Shown: in pieces, positions 6,609-39,434 of the stretch
Layout of the letters: each line of letters begins with the position of its first letter
How positions within the stretch are numbered: position 1 is the first letter of the stretch
Source: Patescibacteria group bacterium
GTDB taxonomy: Bacteria > Patescibacteriota > Minisyncoccia > Phycocordibacterales > PALSA-1337
Direction of reading: 5' to 3'
DNA: 52,919 nt
Assembly: GCA_038064415.1 (NCBI GenBank)
Contig: JBBTTD010000006.1
Location: forward strand, 1-52,919
Made by a program: the position numbers and the translations under genes
The notes under the pieces: generated by a model
What the model saw: the letters and a program-made list of their open reading frames with translations, nothing else
Databases searched by the model: none
What the model was told of the DNA's origin: nothing

Positions 6609-9116
6609 TCATTTCAACTCCCCCCAATTGTTACCAATAGACGCCAAGGCCTTCATAATCACTCCTTTAGTATCTTTTGTGCTCATGACTGATTCCATAA
6701 TTTTTGTAATCTCAACAGCAACTTTTTCAGTTTTATCTTCTCTTATTTCATAGACCAACTCATCATGAACTTGAAGCAGTGGGAAAACATCGTCCTCTAA
6801 TTTCTCGCGACTGATGTACTCGTCAATACGAACCATTGCGAGCTTGATAATATCAGCTCCAGTGCCTTGAATCGGAGAATTTATAGCCATTCGTTCAGCT
6901 GAAGCGCGAATGTATGGAATCTTTGATTTAATTCCTTCAAAATAACGGCGACGCCCAAAGAATGTCTCTGTAAACCCCCGACGGGTCGTTTCTACCTTCA
7001 CTGAATTTAAATATTGCGCCAAAGTGGAAAATGTAGAAAAATAATCGTTATAAAACTTCTGCGCTTCGGCTCGATTGGTTCCGATACTTTGTTGTAACGC
7101 ATTGACTCCCATGCCATAAATAATTCCGAAATTAATAGCTTTGGCGTTGCGGCGCATTTCGGCAGTAACTTTATCTATTGGTACTTTAAACACAAAAGAC
7201 GCCACAGAAGAATGAACATCTTCGCCTTTTTGGAAAATTTCAATCATTTTTTTATCACCAGATATGAACGCGGCGATCCGGAGTTCCACTTGGGAATAAT
7301 CAAAACTACATAATCTGAATCCTTTATCGGCAATAAATGCTCCACGAATAGCACGGCCAAGTTCGGTTTTTATTGGAATGTTTTGTAGATTTGGGTTTTG
7401 TGAAGCCATTCGTCCGGTTGTTGAACCAGAAGAAATCAAATTTGAATGTAATCGATCATTGATATCAAGAAGTGGTGGAATCGCGTCAATATAAGTTGAA
7501 AGTAATTTTGCCAATTCCCGATATTCAAATATCATCGGAACTATCGGGTGCAAGTCACGCAGTTTTTCCAGCTCTGATTCCCTAGTTGAGCGTGCGCCAC
7601 CAGCGGTTTTCTTCATATTCTTGACCGTAAGATTCATTTTATCAAAAAGAATTTCACCAAGTTGCTTTGGTGAATTTATATTAAATTCTACGCCGGCATG
7701 TTTCCAGATTTCCTTTTCCAAACGAGTTAATTCAGTATGGTATGTCTTTGATAGTTTTGAGAGTAATTCCTTATCAATTTTAATTCCATGTTTTTCCATT
7801 TTTTCTATTATTGGAATAAGCGGCAACTCAATGTCTTCATAGACTTTTCTGAGTCCTCTTTTATCAAGTTCAGTAAATATTACTCTTTTTGCTTCTTCAA
7901 ATTTATCTGTATTGGCGAAATTGAGGATATCTTCCAGTGTTGGATTAGTTAAATTTGAATTTACAAGCCATAATGCAAGAGCGGTTTTTTGAGATTCATC
8001 CGCAAGGTCGTCTTTTCTCAACATCGCCTGACTCGGTAAACTTAATAGTTGATTTCGCGACATCTGCGAAGAGAGTTCAGTATCATTGTTCCTTTCGCTA
8101 TTGGACATGGGTATATTATTTCCAACCACTTTCTGCAACCTCTGAACTAAAGTTCTAAATTCCAATTCACTCCAAAGTTGGGAAATTTTTTTAATATCTA
8201 GATTTTCCCTGAAAGTTTTCTCCGGTAAGACGAATGTTATCGGCGCGTCTCTGCGTATTGTCGCCAACATTTTACTGAATTCCGCTTCTTCTTTGTTATC
8301 TTTTAATAATTGGATAATTCTGGGGGTGATCCCAGTTTTTTTGAACTTTTCTTCATTCCCCGCCTCCAATTCTTCATATATTTTTTCAATGGATCCAAAG
8401 TTTGTGATCAAAGTCGTGGCGGTTTTTTCACCGACGCCTTTTATGCCGACAATATTGTCAGACGGATCGCCACGCAATCCCTTATAATCAGCCATAAGCT
8501 CTGGTCCAAAACCAAAACGATCGTAAACTGCTTTTTCATTATAGATAATTGTGTCTTTGATTCCCTTTTTAAAGGTATAGACCTTAACTTCGTCGCCTTG
8601 GACCAGTTGTAATGTGTCCATATCTCCCGAAGCGATGATTATTTCCGTATCTTTTTTTGGTTTTGGTTTTTTGGTTTTTAGTTTGTCTAGGATTTCGGGT
8701 TTAGAATTTTGTATTTTTCCCTTTATCTGTTCCACTATCGTCCCCAACATGTCATCCGCCTCAAATCCTTCCTTGTCATATATTGGGATATTCAAAGCAT
8801 GAAAAATATCTCTAGACCTTATCAATTGTTTGATCAGATCGTCTTCAATTTCTTTTCTTTGAGCTTTATATTCTTTGTAAGCTTTGTGGCGATGGGTTGG
8901 ACCTTTGACATCATAGCAAGCAACCACATAGTCAGGTTTTAAGTCCTCAATAATCTTAATTAACATTGAAGAAAGACCATACAAAGCTCCGGTTGGTTCA
9001 CCTTTGGCGGTAGAAAAATCCGGTAAGGCGTGGTAAGCGCGATGGAGAATAGCGTGTGAATCCAAAAGAATAAGTCTCTTTGGTGTAGTATTTTCTTGTT
9101 TTTTCTTTACCGCCAT
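6609..9116 (-). CDS. polA: DNA polymerase I (5'-3' exonuclease plus polymerase; 3'-5' exonuclease vestigial), with two in-frame insertions
   Basis: LDSHAILHRAYHA, EADD, GDMD, GDPSDNI, TGRMASQNPNLQNIP, DYSQVELR, AKAINFGIIYG, QVHDEL. Start 9116 (MAVKK) preferred over 9131. Confidence 0.95.
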   Translation of the reverse strand: MAVKKKQENTTPKRLILLDSHAILHRAYHALPDFSTAKGEPTGALYGLSSMLIKIIEDLKPDYVVACYDVKGPTHRHKAYKEYKAQRKEIEDDLIKQLIRSRDIFHALNIPIYDKEGFEADDMLGTIVEQIKGKIQNSKPEILDKLKTKKPKPKKDTEIIIASGDMDTLQLVQGDEVKVYTFKKGIKDTIIYNEKAVYDRFGFGPELMADYKGLRGDPSDNIVGIKGVGEKTATTLITNFGSIEKIYEELEAGNEEKFKKTGITPRIIQLLKDNKEEAEFSKMLATIRRDAPITFVLPEKTFRENLDIKKISQLWSELEFRTLVQRLQKVVGNNIPMSNSERNNDTELSSQMSRNQLLSLPSQAMLRKDDLADESQKTALALWLVNSNLTNPTLEDILNFANTDKFEEAKRVIFTELDKRGLRKVYEDIELPLIPIIEKMEKHGIKIDKELLSKLSKTYHTELTRLEKEIWKHAGVEFNINSPKQLGEILFDKMNLTVKNMKKTAGGARSTRESELEKLRDLHPIVPMIFEYRELAKLLSTYIDAIPPLLDINDRLHSNLISSGSTTGRMASQNPNLQNIPIKTELGRAIRGAFIADKGFRLCSFDYSQVELRIAAFISGDKKMIEIFQKGEDVHSSVASFVFKVPIDKVTAEMRRNAKAINFGIIYGMGVNALQQSIGTNRAEAQKFYNDYFSTFSTLAQYLNSVKVETTRRGFTETFFGRRRYFEGIKSKIPYIRASAERMAINSPIQGTGADIIKLAMVRIDEYISREKLEDDVFPLLQVHDELVYEIREDKTEKVAVEITKIMESVMSTKDTKGVIMKALASIGNNWGELK
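8002..8079 (-). repeat. Decayed copy of the CGGAG-core palindromic element, in frame within polA
   Basis: Minus strand TGAACTCTCTTCGCAG-atgtcg-N31-cgatgt-TGAG-AAAAGA-CGACCTTGC matches the cores at 37551-37658 and 39295-39404. Confidence 0.8.
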
Positions 9117-9176
9117 ATAATCATTGTACATTATTTATAAGAAGTTATTCACAACTAAAATAGAAAACGGGCTAAG

Positions 9177-15167: not shown

Positions 15168-15298
15168 CATATCCCCGCACTACATAATACTTCTTTGAAG
15201 CATTGCCGGAGGCCTAAACAGATATTCATCATTCTTTAGCCATTGATTTTAGACAACAGGCGTCGCTTCAAAGAAGTATTATGTAGTGCGGGGATATG
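15168..15298 (+). repeat. Palindromic element A: perfect 34-bp inverted arms around a CGGAG...CGT core
   Basis: 15168-15201 is the exact reverse complement of 15265-15298; CGGAG at 15207, CGT at 15261. Confidence 0.9.
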
Positions 15299-15680: not shown

Positions 15681-18212
15681 ATGCCCCACCATAAAAAAAA
15701 GAGGCCGCGCCGTATTCGTTCTTTAATCTTGCTCATAATATCGGCGGGGTTGGTTGTTGTTGGCTTTAGTTCATTGTGGGTCGCGACACTAGAGATGCCA
15801 GATCTCAACTCTTTCCAAACCAGAAAAGTCGCTGAATCAACAAAAATATACGACCGGACGGGAGAAATTTTACTTTATGACACTGGAAAGGACGCGAAAA
15901 GAACAGCTGTTCCGCTTTCAAGCATATCTCCTTTTATTCCCAAAGCCTCAATCGCTATTGAAGACTCAAATTTTTATACTAACAGTGGTATTGAGCCAAC
16001 TTCAATTATTCGAGCAATTTTTGCAAACCTGGCCACGGGTGGATATAGACAGGGTGCGTCTACAATAACCCAACAAGTGGTAAAAAATTCTCTACTCACA
16101 ACAGACAAAACAATTACTCGCAAAATCAAAGAGTGGGTAATCGCGATAAAGCTCACAAAAATAATGAGTAAGGACCAAATATTGGAAACCTATCTCAATG
16201 ATACTTCATATGGTGGAACCATTTTTGGTGTGGAAGAAGCGAGTCGTATTTTTTTTGGTAAGTCATCAAAAGATGTCACGCTGGCGCAGGCGGCGTATTT
16301 GGCGGCCATACCTCAAGCACCAACATATTATTCACCATATGGAACACATAGAGACGCGCTCGATGCCCGCCATAAACTTGTGTTGCAAAGAATGAAAGAT
16401 CTCGGTGTTATAACAAAAAATGAATATGACTCCGCAATAGCGGAAAAGGTGCAGTTTTTATCAAAAAATGATTCAAACATCCGCGCGCCTCATTTTGTAA
16501 TGTTTGTAAAAGATTATATAACCCAAAAATATGGCGAGGATGTGATCAATAACGACGGCCTTAGGGTCATAACAACACTAGATTTTGGTATGCAACAAAA
16601 GGCCGAGGAGGTCATTGATAAGTTCTCGCCTTCATTACAATCAAATTTTAACGCCAGTAACACGGCAATGGTTGCGATAGATCCAAAAACTGGAGATATT
16701 CTAACAATGATTGGGTCTAAAGATTATTTTGACCCAAGTATTGATGGCAACTTCAATATTGCGCTTGCAAAAAGACAACCAGGATCAACTTTTAAACCTT
16801 TCGTCTATGCGACGGCATTTAAAGAAGGTTATACGCCAGAAACAATATTATTTGACACGGAAACAGAATTTTCAACACAATGTACAGTTGAAGGTAAGCC
16901 CAAAAACCCATCAGATGACCCAGTAAAGGTGTGCTATTCGCCAGATGAATTTGATGATGTTTTTATGGGCCCACTAACAATCCGTAAGGCCCTATCACAA
17001 TCTAGAAACATACCGGCAGTAAAAGCTTTATATTTAGCTGGAATTCCAGATTCAATACAAACAGCTGAAGATATGGGCATTACCGGTTTAACTGACCCAA
17101 ATAGATACGGACTAACCCTTGTCCTTGGTGGTGGTGAGGTGTCTTTGTTAGATTTAACCAGTGCTTATGGTGTATTCGCCAACGATGGGTTGCGCAACCC
17201 TTATCGTTCAATTTTGGGGGTTGAGGATAGTAAGGGCGTGATTCTTGAGAGTGTCAGCGCAACAACAATTCCCACTCAAGTTATCGCTCCAGAAATATCT
17301 AGACAAATATCTGACATCCTATCAGACACAAGTATTAGAATGGAAAGTTTAAAACCAATCGGTGAAAGTGTCGGCAGAAAAGTTGCCATCAAAACTGGTA
17401 CCACAAATGACTATCGTGATGTTTGGACGGTTGGATACACGCCAAATCTTGTTGTTGGTGCTTGGGCCGGAAACAATGATAACCATCCAATGCAACACAA
17501 TGTTGCTGGTTTAATAATCACGCCGTTGTGGGGCGCATTCATGTCACAAGTCGCACAAAATTTTCCTCCAGAAGACTTCCAGTCGCCCCCACCACCACTA
17601 TCTGATAATAAACCGGTTTTGCGTGGGGTGTGGCAAGGGGGAGCATCTTATTGGAAAGATAGTATTTCAGGAAAAGTCGCGACCGAATATACCCCGCCGG
17701 AAACCAAAAAAGAGGTTGTTTTCAATAGCGTCCACACAATTCTTAATTGGATAAATAAGGACGATCCACGGGGACCAGTTTCGGTAAACCCACAAAATGA
17801 TTCGCAGTATGCATATTGGGAATATGGGGTAAGAAAGTGGTTTGATACCTACAAACAAAGTCATCTAGATTTTAGTGAGGTAACTAGTACATCTATACCA
17901 ACAGCAATAGATGACGTCCACGTTCCGGGTAAATTACCGTCTGTTTCGTTCCTCTCACCACAACAAGGGTCGAGTATTGATTCGGGTGGATCGTTATCAA
18001 TCAAACTTAGGTCTATTGGCGCCTATCCACCACAAAAAACGGAGGTATATTTGAACGGAAAGTATGTTATGACTTCAGAAAAAGATCCCTTAAATATTTC
18101 ATTCTTCCCTTCGGATGTTGGTGGTCTGTCCGAAAACAACACCTTGTCGGTCACTATGTATGATAGTGTGTTCAACCGAGCATTAGCAACGACAACATTC
18201 TCAATTAAATAA
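15681..18212 (+). CDS. Class A penicillin-binding protein (transglycosylase/transpeptidase, PBP1A-like)
   Basis: IEDSNF, QGASTITQQVVKN, GSTFKPF (SxxK), SRN (SxN), KTGT motifs; N-terminal TM segment. Confidence 0.93.
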   Translation: MPHHKKKRPRRIRSLILLIISAGLVVVGFSSLWVATLEMPDLNSFQTRKVAESTKIYDRTGEILLYDTGKDAKRTAVPLSSISPFIPKASIAIEDSNFYTNSGIEPTSIIRAIFANLATGGYRQGASTITQQVVKNSLLTTDKTITRKIKEWVIAIKLTKIMSKDQILETYLNDTSYGGTIFGVEEASRIFFGKSSKDVTLAQAAYLAAIPQAPTYYSPYGTHRDALDARHKLVLQRMKDLGVITKNEYDSAIAEKVQFLSKNDSNIRAPHFVMFVKDYITQKYGEDVINNDGLRVITTLDFGMQQKAEEVIDKFSPSLQSNFNASNTAMVAIDPKTGDILTMIGSKDYFDPSIDGNFNIALAKRQPGSTFKPFVYATAFKEGYTPETILFDTETEFSTQCTVEGKPKNPSDDPVKVCYSPDEFDDVFMGPLTIRKALSQSRNIPAVKALYLAGIPDSIQTAEDMGITGLTDPNRYGLTLVLGGGEVSLLDLTSAYGVFANDGLRNPYRSILGVEDSKGVILESVSATTIPTQVIAPEISRQISDILSDTSIRMESLKPIGESVGRKVAIKTGTTNDYRDVWTVGYTPNLVVGAWAGNNDNHPMQHNVAGLIITPLWGAFMSQVAQNFPPEDFQSPPPPLSDNKPVLRGVWQGGASYWKDSISGKVATEYTPPETKKEVVFNSVHTILNWINKDDPRGPVSVNPQNDSQYAYWEYGVRKWFDTYKQSHLDFSEVTSTSIPTAIDDVHVPGKLPSVSFLSPQQGSSIDSGGSLSIKLRSIGAYPPQKTEVYLNGKYVMTSEKDPLNISFFPSDVGGLSENNTLSVTMYDSVFNRALATTTFSIK

Positions 18213-21258: not shown

Positions 21259-21418
21259 TAAATAAAGTGATAAAGAGTTTGGTGAATATATATTTTATAC
21301 AAATTGCGTTATGTCCCCAACAAAACCTAGACGATGGGGCAACATAATTTGTATAAAATATATATTCACCAAACTCTAAAACTTGATTTATTAAAATATT
21401 TAAGCTATTGTTTGTGTC

Positions 21419-22696: not shown

Positions 22697-22813
22697 CAAG
22701 AAACATGTGTAGTTCGGATACGTTGCGGAGCGCGACGGCGCGAGCATAGGAATTTTTCAGCAGAAAAATATCCGTGTATCCGAACTACACATGTTTCTTG
22801 TTACTTTAAGTGT
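22684..22813 (+). repeat. Palindromic element B: perfect 38-bp inverted arms around a CGGAG/CGAG/CGT core, between convergent genes
   Basis: 22684-22721 is the exact reverse complement of 22776-22813; the left arm includes the yidC stop codon. Confidence 0.9.
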
Positions 22814-37118: not shown

Positions 37119-39224
37119 TTAAAAATCAATAAATATCGCTTTCACGCCCGTTGGTTTTTCTGGAATACCCTCATCAAGTAACTTACTGTCTATGTCGGCA
37201 ATAAACTCTGAAGGGGTATTGATTCTTTTAGTTCCATATATTGTGCGAATAAGAGTATGACTCAAATGTACCTTCTTTTTAGCGCGAGTCAATGCTACAT
37301 AAAAAAGACGACGCTCTTCTTCCGCTTCCGATCCACTCGTTTCTTCATCGTCAGAGTGTTTGAACGGAAAAAGTTCCTGTTCCATTCCAGCGATAAAGAC
37401 ATGATCAAACTCCAGTCCTTTTGACGCATGAACTGTCATTAGTTTTACCGCATCCTCGTCTTTTTGTAGGTCATCTTGGTCTGTGGCTAAGGCGGCGTTT
37501 TCCAGGAATTTTTCTATTCCCGAAACGCCCAACTTTACAGATAAGAGTTCTGAACCCTCTTCGGAGCGCCGCTGGATTGCGTATTCATTTACTCCGAATG
37601 GCGGCGCGAGAAAAGACGGCTTTGCGAGCGATTCTGTTGTGCGAGCAAAGCCGATCGTGGGTGAAGAACTCTTATCTGTAAAGTTGGGCGTTTCGGATAT
37701 TGTAAGATCATCATACTGAGTCGCGACGGAAACTAATTCACGAATATTAAGTAGTCGCTCTAAATCTTCTGAATCGCCATCCAAAAGAAGCTTTTCTATT
37801 CCTGTTTCCTGAATAACAAATTTAATTGCTTCTGATGGCTTTTTTTCCATTATTTCATGTTGGATATCATCAAGTAATTTCCAAAAACCATCAATCTTCA
37901 ACCTCATGACTGGCGGGATCAAGTCTGGTCTGGCCGACATTATTTTGGCAATCGTGGCTTTACCTATCCCACGGATCGGAACATTGATTATCCTGCCAAT
38001 ATCACCCCAAGACTCTCTATTTAACGACGCCCTAATGTATGAAAGGACATCCTTAACCTCTTTCCTCTCAAAAAACCTAACTCCAACTAATTGGTAGGGT
38101 ATGTTTTTTTTAATGAATGCCTCTTCAATAACTCGTGATTGAAAATTAGTTCTATACAATACGGCAATATTTCTAGCTGATGTGCCACTTTCAATTAGTG
38201 ATCTGGCAGAATCGGCGATATTTCTAGCCTCATCTAGTTCTGTGTACGCGGCATTCAGGACAATCTTCTCCCCTTGAGCATTATCTGTGTGTAGAGTTTT
38301 CTTTTTTCGCAAATTATTCTTTTCTATGATGCTGTTTGCTGCGGCTAAAATTGTTTTTGTTGAACGATAATTTTTTTCTAAAGCGATCACTGTTGTGTTT
38401 GGGTAATCTTTTTCAAAGTTAAGAATATTTTCGATTGTCGCGCCGCGCCAGCTGTAGATATTCTGGTCAGCGTCGCCGACTACGCAAATATTCCTATGCG
38501 ATTCCGCTAAATATTTTGTTATTTTATATTGCACTCTATTTGTGTCTTGATATTCATCAACATGAATGTATTTCCAGATTGATTGGTAGCGTTTGCGAAC
38601 CGTTTCATTTTTCTCCAAAATATTCATGGTCTTTAAGAGCAGGTCGTCAAAATCCAAAGCTTTTTCTTTGGCTAAAATCGCGTCGTATTTTCTCCAGACA
38701 CTGGCGATTATTCCTTGGATATGATTTTTTGCCTCATCTGAATATTCTGAATGTCCGATCGCATTCCCCTTTGCGCGCGAAATCAAATTGAGGATCATTC
38801 CTGGTTCGTATTGTTCCGTGTTTATTGAAAGTTCCTCCATGGCTTGTTTTATTGCTTTTTTAGAATCTGATCGGTCAAAAATTGTGAAATGTCTGGTTAG
38901 TCCGACCAATTGAGTATTTTCTTTGATGATATGTACTCCAAGCGCGTGAAATGTGCTTAAAAACGGCCGTTCACTGATTGAAATAGGAATATTCAAGCTT
39001 TCATCCTCGGATATTAATGTTTCTACCCGTTCACGCATCTCTTTTGCCGCCTTATTTGTGAAAGTTATTGCCAAAATTTCATGTGGAGCCACGCCCTTTT
39101 TAATTAGATTGATGATTCTATGAGTTATTACCCTAGTTTTACCAGTTCCCGCTCCAGCGATAATAAGAAGTGGACCTTCAGTGGTTTCCACTGCGCGTTG
39201 TTGGGCTTCATTGAGGGTTGTCAT
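37119..39224 (-). CDS. pcrA: UvrD/PcrA ATP-dependent DNA helicase with a 59-codon element insertion
   Basis: AGAGTGKT, FTNKAA.EM, VDEYQDTN, VGDADQ.IY.WRGA, NYRS, MT.HASKGLEF, EERRLFYVA.TRA. Start 39224. Confidence 0.96.
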   Translation of the reverse strand: MTTLNEAQQRAVETTEGPLLIIAGAGTGKTRVITHRIINLIKKGVAPHEILAITFTNKAAKEMRERVETLISEDESLNIPISISERPFLSTFHALGVHIIKENTQLVGLTRHFTIFDRSDSKKAIKQAMEELSINTEQYEPGMILNLISRAKGNAIGHSEYSDEAKNHIQGIIASVWRKYDAILAKEKALDFDDLLLKTMNILEKNETVRKRYQSIWKYIHVDEYQDTNRVQYKITKYLAESHRNICVVGDADQNIYSWRGATIENILNFEKDYPNTTVIALEKNYRSTKTILAAANSIIEKNNLRKKKTLHTDNAQGEKIVLNAAYTELDEARNIADSARSLIESGTSARNIAVLYRTNFQSRVIEEAFIKKNIPYQLVGVRFFERKEVKDVLSYIRASLNRESWGDIGRIINVPIRGIGKATIAKIMSARPDLIPPVMRLKIDGFWKLLDDIQHEIMEKKPSEAIKFVIQETGIEKLLLDGDSEDLERLLNIRELVSVATQYDDLTISETPNFTDKSSSPTIGFARTTESLAKPSFLAPPFGVNEYAIQRRSEEGSELLSVKLGVSGIEKFLENAALATDQDDLQKDEDAVKLMTVHASKGLEFDHVFIAGMEQELFPFKHSDDEETSGSEAEEERRLFYVALTRAKKKVHLSHTLIRTIYGTKRINTPSEFIADIDSKLLDEGIPEKPTGVKAIFIDF
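37520..37696 (+). mobile_element. Palindromic element C (177 bp, perfect 32-bp arms) inserted in frame in pcrA
   Basis: 37520-37551 is the exact reverse complement of 37665-37696; 177 is divisible by 3; core matches element D. Mobility is inferred. Confidence 0.85.
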
Positions 39225-39271: not shown

Positions 39272-39434
39272 GGTGGGGTGGAGACAATTCCCCTTGAACC
39301 CTCTTCGGAGGCGTCGGGTAACTATAGTTTAACTATAAGATGTACACGATGCCGAGAAAAGAAAACTCTGCGAGCTTTTCTGTAATGCGAGCAGAGTTTA
39401 TCGTGGGTTCAGGGGGAATTGTCTCCACCCCACC
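39272..39434 (+). repeat. Palindromic element D (30-bp arms, 29/30) upstream of pcrA
   Basis: 39272-39301 pairs with 39405-39434 with one T-G; core in the same register as C. Confidence 0.9.

Follow-up and report, generated by a model that had tools for sequence, protein, structure and literature searches.

The gene for DNA polymerase I (polA) of an ultra-small groundwater bacterium of the Patescibacteria very probably carries the decayed and truncated relic of a palindromic element of about 180 nucleotides (nt) that was once inserted in the linker between the 5'-3' exonuclease and polymerase domains of the encoded protein. The gene lies in a stretch of 52,919 nt (contig JBBTTD010000006.1 of assembly GCA_038064415.1), hereafter the window, of a genome of 643 kb that is labelled G000. 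The relic belongs to a family of palindromic elements with a CGGAG core, which is represented in the window by two intact copies, C and D, in and next to the gene pcrA. It is truncated, lies in frame, no longer folds and sits in a hypervariable linker that holds an intact copy in a related genome, G028; judged from its sequence, it is an old selfish insertion midway through erosion into ordinary linker.

The host gene and the parts of the relic, in the order in which they are read on the sense strand of polA, are as follows.

6609..9131, minus strand: polA (DNA polymerase I), the host gene, an open reading frame (ORF) of 840 residues (ORF list, translation, Pfam).
8073..8093, minus strand: stub of the left (5') outer arm, AGGAACAATGATACTGAACTC, which aligns to its counterpart GGGAACAAACCTTCTGAACCC in G028, where the polA copy is intact.
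8064..8072, minus strand: junction strand 1, TCTTCGCAG, conserved in the family with the consensus TCTTCGGAG.
8021..8063, minus strand: stem 1, a complete hairpin of the form ATGTCG(C)-loop-(G)CGATGT, read from the sequence.
8011..8020, minus strand: junction strand 2, TGAGAAAAGA, with the consensus CGAGAAAAGA.
8001..8010, minus strand: 5' half of stem 2, CGACCTTGCG, where the element ends (end of the nhmmer alignment and global alignment with G028).
7983..8000, minus strand: end of the host linker, GATGAATCTCAAAAAACC (DESQKT), which abuts the presumed deletion junction on its 3' side and corresponds to DFNQT in the sister genomes.
Relic segment of PolA: tryptic peptides NQLLSLPSQAMLR and NNDTELSSQMSR (predicted).

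As the original prediction had described, accurately in every detail that was checked, the minus strand of 8002-8079 reads TGAACTCTCTTCGCAG-ATGTCG-N31-CGATGT-TGAG-AAAAGA-CGACCTTGC and encodes ELSSQMSRNQLLSLPSQAMLRKDDL, residues 352-376 of PolA, in frame in the region between the domains 5_3_exonuc_N (PF02739, residues 19-207) and 5_3_exonuc (PF01367, residues 210-305) on the one side and DNA_pol_A (PF00476, residues 455-838) on the other. The homology is slightly wider, about 8001-8093, which adds the left-arm stub. Stem 1 (ATGTCGC/GCGATGT) is kept as 7 base pairs (bp) including two G-U wobbles on the sense strand, junction strand 1 has the CGCAG variant that is found in intact copies too, and the 5' half of stem 2 (CGACCTTGC) is identical to that of C (CGGCTTTGC) at 7 of 9 positions. 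The right arm, pairing partner of the left-arm stub, is gone, and no trace of it, of the 3' half of stem 2 or of ATCGTGGG was seen 3' of the relic, the nhmmer alignment ending at position 92 of the 142 in the profile. The relic region (161 nt) folds no better than shuffled sequence (z-score +0.4) and its minimum-energy fold does without stem 1. An assembly artefact can be set aside since positions 7800-8300 are identical in independent assemblies, that is, across contigs of four sequencing runs from two studies. No 3'-5' exonuclease domain was detected in a Pfam search of the 840 residues of PolA; only about 150 residues separate the 5'-nuclease from the polymerase domain, and the proofreading-like domain seems reduced to a stub.

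What does a complete element of this family look like? The two intact reference elements of the window are:

37520..37696, plus strand: element C (inverted repeat I2; fold -106.8 kcal/mol, z-score -12; 156 and 144 bits with the covariance models).
39272..39434, plus strand: element D (inverted repeat I6; fold -104.4 kcal/mol, z-score -12.5; 164 and 130 bits with the covariance models).

Both are laid out as outer stem, ACCC, TCTTCGGAG, stem 1, CGAGAAAAGA, stem 2, ATCGTGGGT and the closing side of the outer stem, and their outer stems and parts of both inner stems are unrelated in sequence, with 16 of the pairs compared being compensatory. C lies in frame inside the pcrA ORF, antisense to the gene and within the UvrD_C region, and the ORF reads through it; D lies directly upstream of pcrA, is non-coding and is closed in all six frames. 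The relic has the junction strands in the order and spacing of the family ((GA)ACCC-TCTTCG[G/C]AG, stem 1, CGAGAAAAGA, stem 2) and lacks the whole fold of three stems that a long outer stem closes off, which makes it a truncated member. Like C, D and about 110 relatives, it thus has stem 1, the beginning of stem 2 and the junction strands, spaced in the same way, as well as the peptide of the sense frame; unlike them, it is without the 3' third and the right arm and has no fold.

How far does this resemblance exceed chance? The 15-mer GAACCCTCTTCGGAG matches, with at most 2 mismatches, only at C, D and polA; since about one such match is expected by chance (our estimate), the 15-mer alone proves nothing. 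Local sequence profiles are the suitable tool for a relic of this kind. An nhmmer profile built from C and D only and run against the 643-kb genome found 8000-8084 of the minus strand at 28.7 bits (E = 3.8e-7), with the next match at E = 0.7, and the best of 20,000 dinucleotide-preserving shuffles reached 9.0 bits, so that the segment passes with high significance the check by a C and D profile that had been proposed for it. A profile of 26 copies from other genomes, none of them in polA and none from G000, gave the relic 24.2 bits (E = 2.3e-6 over the whole genome) and the best shuffle 6.5 bits; the relic aligned to profile positions 6-92 of 142 only (7-92 in the genome-wide searches), and over both profiles the next-best genome matches had E values of 0.1-0.7. 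BLAST of C and D against the genome returned only C and D themselves.

Beyond the window, a first covariance model, run on 37 sampled genomes from the same genus (Candidatus Taylorbacteria-type), detected copies in 16 of them and none in 24 other families of the order. A second model, made from 32 aligned copies and run on 93 genomes of the genus, detected about 110 copies in 47 of them, with 0-8 per genome. An exact-pattern scan of one genome per species in 185,579 species yielded 40 loci, about one of them expected to be a false match, all in Patescibacteria genome bins and several labelled Candidatus Taylorbacteria or Paceibacterota. Rfam 15 at gathering scores recognised four tRNAs and no element in the window, and a permissive Rfam search of four loci with intact copies gave nothing on the elements. 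The proposed fold covaries: 94.7% of the cells pair as compared to 36-41% with slid partners, and 31 of 35 pairs vary on both sides, in an alignment that was fitted to the model and is therefore biased in its favour. Each of the 14 pairs of the outer stem varies on its two sides and shows 4-5 pair types, and the arms are thus copy-specific. Moreover, G-U pairs outnumber A-C pairs on the CGGAG strand (39 versus 8 cells) and this strand folds better in 26 of the 32 copies, indicating that one strand is the folded one, whatever the direction of the host gene. Other long hairpins of the window (22702-22795, 15183-15283 and 21283-21368) score 20-40 bits with the family models; the hairpin at 22702-22795 keeps the CGGAG...CGAG motifs with much shorter inner stems and may be a miniature relative.

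About one third of the examined copies lie inside large ORFs with the frame open. The host genes, assigned by reading their sequences, are given here by orientation of the copy, the translation of which is predicted:

Sense: secA (G010, G030), pcrA (G003), uvrA (G035), dnaE (G032), an ATPase gene (G030), recG (G095, G109) and polA (G028, G067).
Antisense: pcrA (G000), argS (G016) and polA (G009, G016 and two metagenome contigs).

The frame that is read is common to all sense copies (..EPSS[E/Q]A....PRKDG.A..) and differs from the one common to all antisense copies (..SSPTIGFARTTES..). That of the polA relic is the sense frame, reading ELSSQMSRNQ..MLRKDDLA as compared to EPSSQASRNQ..TPRKDGFA of other sense copies. 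Closest to it in core sequence are the two recG copies, L153 (G095:C14) and L154 (G109:C1), intact sense copies in an ORF of about 680 residues that by its N-terminal sequence encodes a putative RecG helicase. The CGGAG strand is the sense strand in polA and the opposite strand in pcrA, from which it had been concluded that insertion orientation is independent of host transcription; this conclusion is borne out by the polA copies above, which occur in both orientations, and by the pcrA site, where the copy is antisense in the window and, at the same position, sense in G003.

What was at the polA site before? The linker, taken as the stretch between two conserved anchors in 49 polA genes of the genus, ranges from 25 to 108 residues (75-324 nt, always a multiple of three) and has no conserved sequence, so that conservation of the linker in lineages that lack the element does not account for the segment. 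Sixteen of the 49 linkers fold far better than shuffles (z-score <= -4), which means that about a third hold a palindromic insert; the linker of the window has a z-score of +0.2. In the linker of G028 there is an intact sense copy (109 bits with covariance model R1, 122 bits with R2 and 85 bits with nhmmer), and that of its sister G067 holds a more diverged sense copy (48.5, 88.7 and 48 bits). A maximum-likelihood tree of polA with the linker removed places the three genomes in one clade, {G000,(G003,((G009,G010),(G028,G067)))}, with a support of 100/99. The relic and the G028 copy align without gaps over 105 nt at 69% identity, a value reached by none of 20,000 shuffles, and this alignment spans the stem-1 loop, the copy-specific left arm (GCGAAAGGAACAA versus GCGAAGGGAACAA) and the upstream host flank. 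As arms are elsewhere unrelated between copies, their similarity in the relic and G028 argues for the same insertion. In stem 1, three pairs have changed relative to G028 (GCGTCGC/GCGACGC), and all three still pair on the sense strand. The window's segment is shared only with genomes carrying the element, and the presence of full-length copies at many loci of the genus identifies the half copy as the derived state. Compared with G028, a stretch of about 70 nt is absent that begins directly behind TTGCG and ends directly in front of the GAT in the final codons of the linker. GAT is present in each of the two candidate junction sequences of G028 and may represent microhomology. A metagenome scan found no closer polA relative (the best had 65% identity over the region) and added only the two antisense polA copies. 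The window's polA copy is thus probably an orthologous insertion that lost about 70 nt of its 3' side and with them the fold, and its description as a decayed and trimmed copy holds in the light of the intact sense copy with similar arm and flank at the same linker position within the clade.

The following course of events would account for these observations. An element of the family of C and D would have entered the interdomain linker of PolA, sense and in frame, before the split from G028 and G067, as a single ancestral insertion common to the three genomes. Later, in the lineage of the window, a deletion of about 70 nt would have cut away the right arm together with the third junction strand and the 3' half of stem 2, the reading frame staying open. 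The parts that stayed would be those from the left-arm stub to the 5' half of stem 2, with stem 1 and the junction strands 1 and 2 between them. This remnant would have drifted toward A+T and unfolded, and would now supply some 30 residues to a linker in which nearly any sequence is tolerated, presumably as a neutral spacer. The original prediction had spoken of an older insertion being domesticated as linker sequence. The first part stands in so far as the insertion predates the split from G028 and G067, and does not extend to an age greater than that of the pcrA copy; the second stands in so far as the segment is kept as linker and predicted to be translated, and does not extend to a gained function or to selection on the relic.

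Several observations weigh against a single decayed insertion that is now read as linker. The covariance models R1 and R2 give the relic only 14-16 bits, with E values of 0.067 and 0.018 in the window and 0.84 genome-wide; these scores are marginal because the models demand the whole fold and the relic misses one side of two helices, so that it is under-scored. Within the clade, the full-length copy of G009 is antisense and differs in stem 2, the site of G010 is taken by another palindromic family, and the linker of G003 shows no more than a faint trace of a divergent subfamily, the score of which was equalled or surpassed by 2 of 500 shuffles and which was considered too weak to be relied on. 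These states point to more than one event at the polA linker; a divergent antisense copy is also found there in G016. In addition, the core of the relic is 61-68% identical to C and to the recG copies of G095 and G109 and 63% identical to G028; the core therefore does not single out G028, and orthology rests on position, orientation, arm and flank. Finally, none of the sequencing runs found to hold the locus is an RNA run, and translation of the relic is predicted from the open frame.

Could the linker be a hot spot at which the lineage of the window gained a separate copy that is of the same subfamily as that of G028 and G067, is unrelated to it by descent and was truncated afterwards? PolA linkers have been hit repeatedly, by at least two other palindromic families and by the CGGAG-core family in both orientations, the pcrA site has different arms in G000, G003 and G010, and the similarity of the core is non-discriminating, as just described, for which reason such an independent insertion stays as a minor rival. 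Yet arms are copy-specific, and the arm stub of the relic as well as the upstream host sequence match those of G028; moreover, the two copies agree in orientation, frame and subfamily and their genomes belong to one clade with 100/99 support, which leaves two separate insertions an unlikely account. A retained function, in which PolA is served by the peptide or, at the level of the mRNA, by stem 1, for example through a translational pause or as a spacer of a certain length, would be compatible with decay and appears about equally improbable. The frame is intact and stem 1 still pairs in spite of the three changes relative to G028, but this is weak evidence, as two single G:C to G:U changes would leave the pairs intact with a chance of about 25% (our estimate). 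Furthermore, the 161-nt region does not fold better than shuffles and does not use stem 1 in its minimum-energy fold, linkers of 25 residues work in relatives and the linker sequence is unconserved across the genus.

Still less probable is a partial gene conversion, by which a piece of C or of another copy was pasted into the polA linker and the element was never whole there. C is located only 29 kb away in the same genome, and the stem-2 half (CGACCTTGC) and the junction strands of the relic resemble it. However, stem 1, the loop and the CGCAG variant match the subfamily of the G028 and recG copies and not C, the arm stub matches the arm of G028 while C is without that arm, and an intact copy is present at the same place in the sister genomes; no conversion tract with sharp identity boundaries to C was seen, the identity to C being diffuse at 63%. 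Chance resemblance in A+T-rich coding sequence, for which the 15-mer match expected about once per genome and the genome-wide E value of the covariance models could be quoted, has a negligible probability and was already refuted by the local profiles (E of 1e-6 to 1e-7, next-best 0.1-0.7), by the shuffles, none of 20,000 of which exceeded 9 bits, and by the presence in relatives of an intact copy at this very site.

The decay of an inserted element, as preferred here for polA, can be compared with the states of the pcrA site. This site is empty (QYDHLPPEEGIE) in about 20 genomes, is occupied at exactly this position by full copies in G000 (antisense) and G003 (sense), and has residual inserts of 9-25 residues in G028, G067, G009 and G010. 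These states support insertion, flipping and erosion as a general course, in which the polA relic is an intermediate. Opposite orientations at one site with similar outer flanks would be expected from recombination between the inverted arms. The residual insert of G010 (L086) is a perfect 40-bp palindrome, GGAAAACAAAGTCCGACCTT|AAGGTCGGACTTTGTTTTCC, in frame and without core, and represents either a clamp that was there before or two arms left over once the core was lost. Copies are also found immediately downstream of the pcrA stop codon (G006:C1:46825-46963, G011:C3:135459-135603 and G027:C101:2838-2959), and, together with D upstream of the gene, they make the pcrA neighbourhood a recurrent association of the family beyond the site in the gene.

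Other palindromes occupy the same places. A second, unrelated in-frame palindromic repeat (GTCATCCCCGCGAAGGCGGGGATCCAG...), the arms of which encode IPAKAGIQ and LDSRLRGND, is found in five polA linkers, those of G061 (L035), G011 (L054), G010 (L063), G021 (L071) and G074 (L068); in uvrA of G000 (genome contig C1, about position 17850) the sequence MDSRFRGNDNG stands exactly where uvrA of G035 has a copy of the CGGAG family. A third one, the mini-palindrome GAGGTCGGACCTC, occurs in up to three repeats, encodes RSDLG/EVGPQP/EVRPQP and was seen at the pcrA site of G014 (L098) and in the polA linker of G024 (L077). The polA linker of G030 (L066, 234 nt) contains a nearly perfect in-frame hairpin of about 190 nt (minimum free energy -161.8 kcal/mol, z-score -16) that has no three-way core and is not recognised by the family models.

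Patescibacteria proteins are known for odd insertions. The variation in length of the PolA linker in this phylum stems in part from repeat elements and not from ordinary insertions and deletions, and annotators and structure predictors should be aware that such linker residues are repeat-derived. The relic adds to a dated, site-matched series of empty site, intact copy, flipped copy, half copy and unrecognisable linker, and is more interesting as part of the story of the family than alone. Tentatively, and with clearly less than even confidence, we suggest a life cycle undescribed for prokaryotic repeats, of which the relic would be one stage. In it, an element that folds strand-specifically as RNA or single-stranded DNA and has copy-specific perfect arms would settle in large enzymes of replication, repair and secretion, at their linkers and loops, could flip in place and would then erode to half of a copy, to a palindrome of arms alone or to a handful of residues. 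This turnover, along with at least two further palindromic families at the same sites, would be chiefly responsible for the varying length of linkers and loops in the housekeeping proteins of these reduced genomes, and the conserved core of the element would have a function of its own instead of being merely selfish.

How does this family relate to known repeats? In repetitive extragenic palindromic (REP) sequences and bacterial interspersed mosaic elements (BIMEs) with their REP-associated tyrosine transposases (RAYTs), and in the insertion sequences of the IS200/IS605 type, Y1 HUH transposases recognise strand-specific DNA hairpins. Likewise, a strand-specific folded structure and not a fixed sequence would be the recognised feature of the CGGAG-core family. 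Y1_Tnp (PF01797), tried as a candidate mobiliser, is present in 49 of the 93 genomes and showed no association with the element (25 genomes with both, 22 with the element only, 24 with Y1_Tnp only and 22 with neither); G000 has none.

Bacterial MITEs (miniature transposable elements with inverted repeats; Correia/CREE, ERIC, BOX, RUP, Nezha and others) are short, non-autonomous and hairpin-forming, and some of them carry ORFs and make in-frame fusions (PMC10969869). CGGAG-core elements are also short hairpin-forming repeats that lie in frame in genes. MITEs are defined by conserved terminal inverted repeats that are read by a transposase and by target-site duplications (PMC10969869). In contrast, the terminal arms of the CGGAG-core family vary (14 of 14 outer-stem pairs), those of C and D are unrelated, and no partner transposase was found for the family. 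A target duplication cannot be defined because the insertion sites are hypervariable: in the comparison of filled and empty sites in secA, uvrA, argS and dnaE these are hypervariable loops in which the element boundaries cannot be set.

The closest analogue is the group of Rickettsia palindromic elements (RPEs). The palindromes RPE-1 to RPE-10 occur as in-frame insertions in numerous housekeeping genes (Ogata et al., 2000; summary in PMC10969869); the account of them in that review makes no mention of half-deleted copies. Both are palindromic repeats of about 150 bp in unrelated housekeeping genes of reduced genomes, add peptide segments at tolerant positions (here predicted) and occur between genes as well. 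In the CGGAG-core family, ORFs run through copies in polA, pcrA, secA, uvrA, dnaE, argS and recG, with translation predicted, and a literature search for in-frame palindromic elements in Patescibacteria returned nothing relevant. Unlike RPEs, the family belongs to Patescibacteria, and its sequence is apparently unrelated; the restriction of the core to Patescibacteria bins in the scan of 185,579 species argues for a separate family. In addition, its copy number is low (0-8 per genome), its outer arms are copy-specific and not conserved, its three-stem core is conserved, covaries and prefers one strand (39 G-U versus 8 A-C), and it occurs in both orientations at the same site. As the concept is already known from Rickettsia and is not a new principle, the interest of the polA relic and its family lies in the new phylum, the unusual architecture of the element and a clear intermediate of decay.

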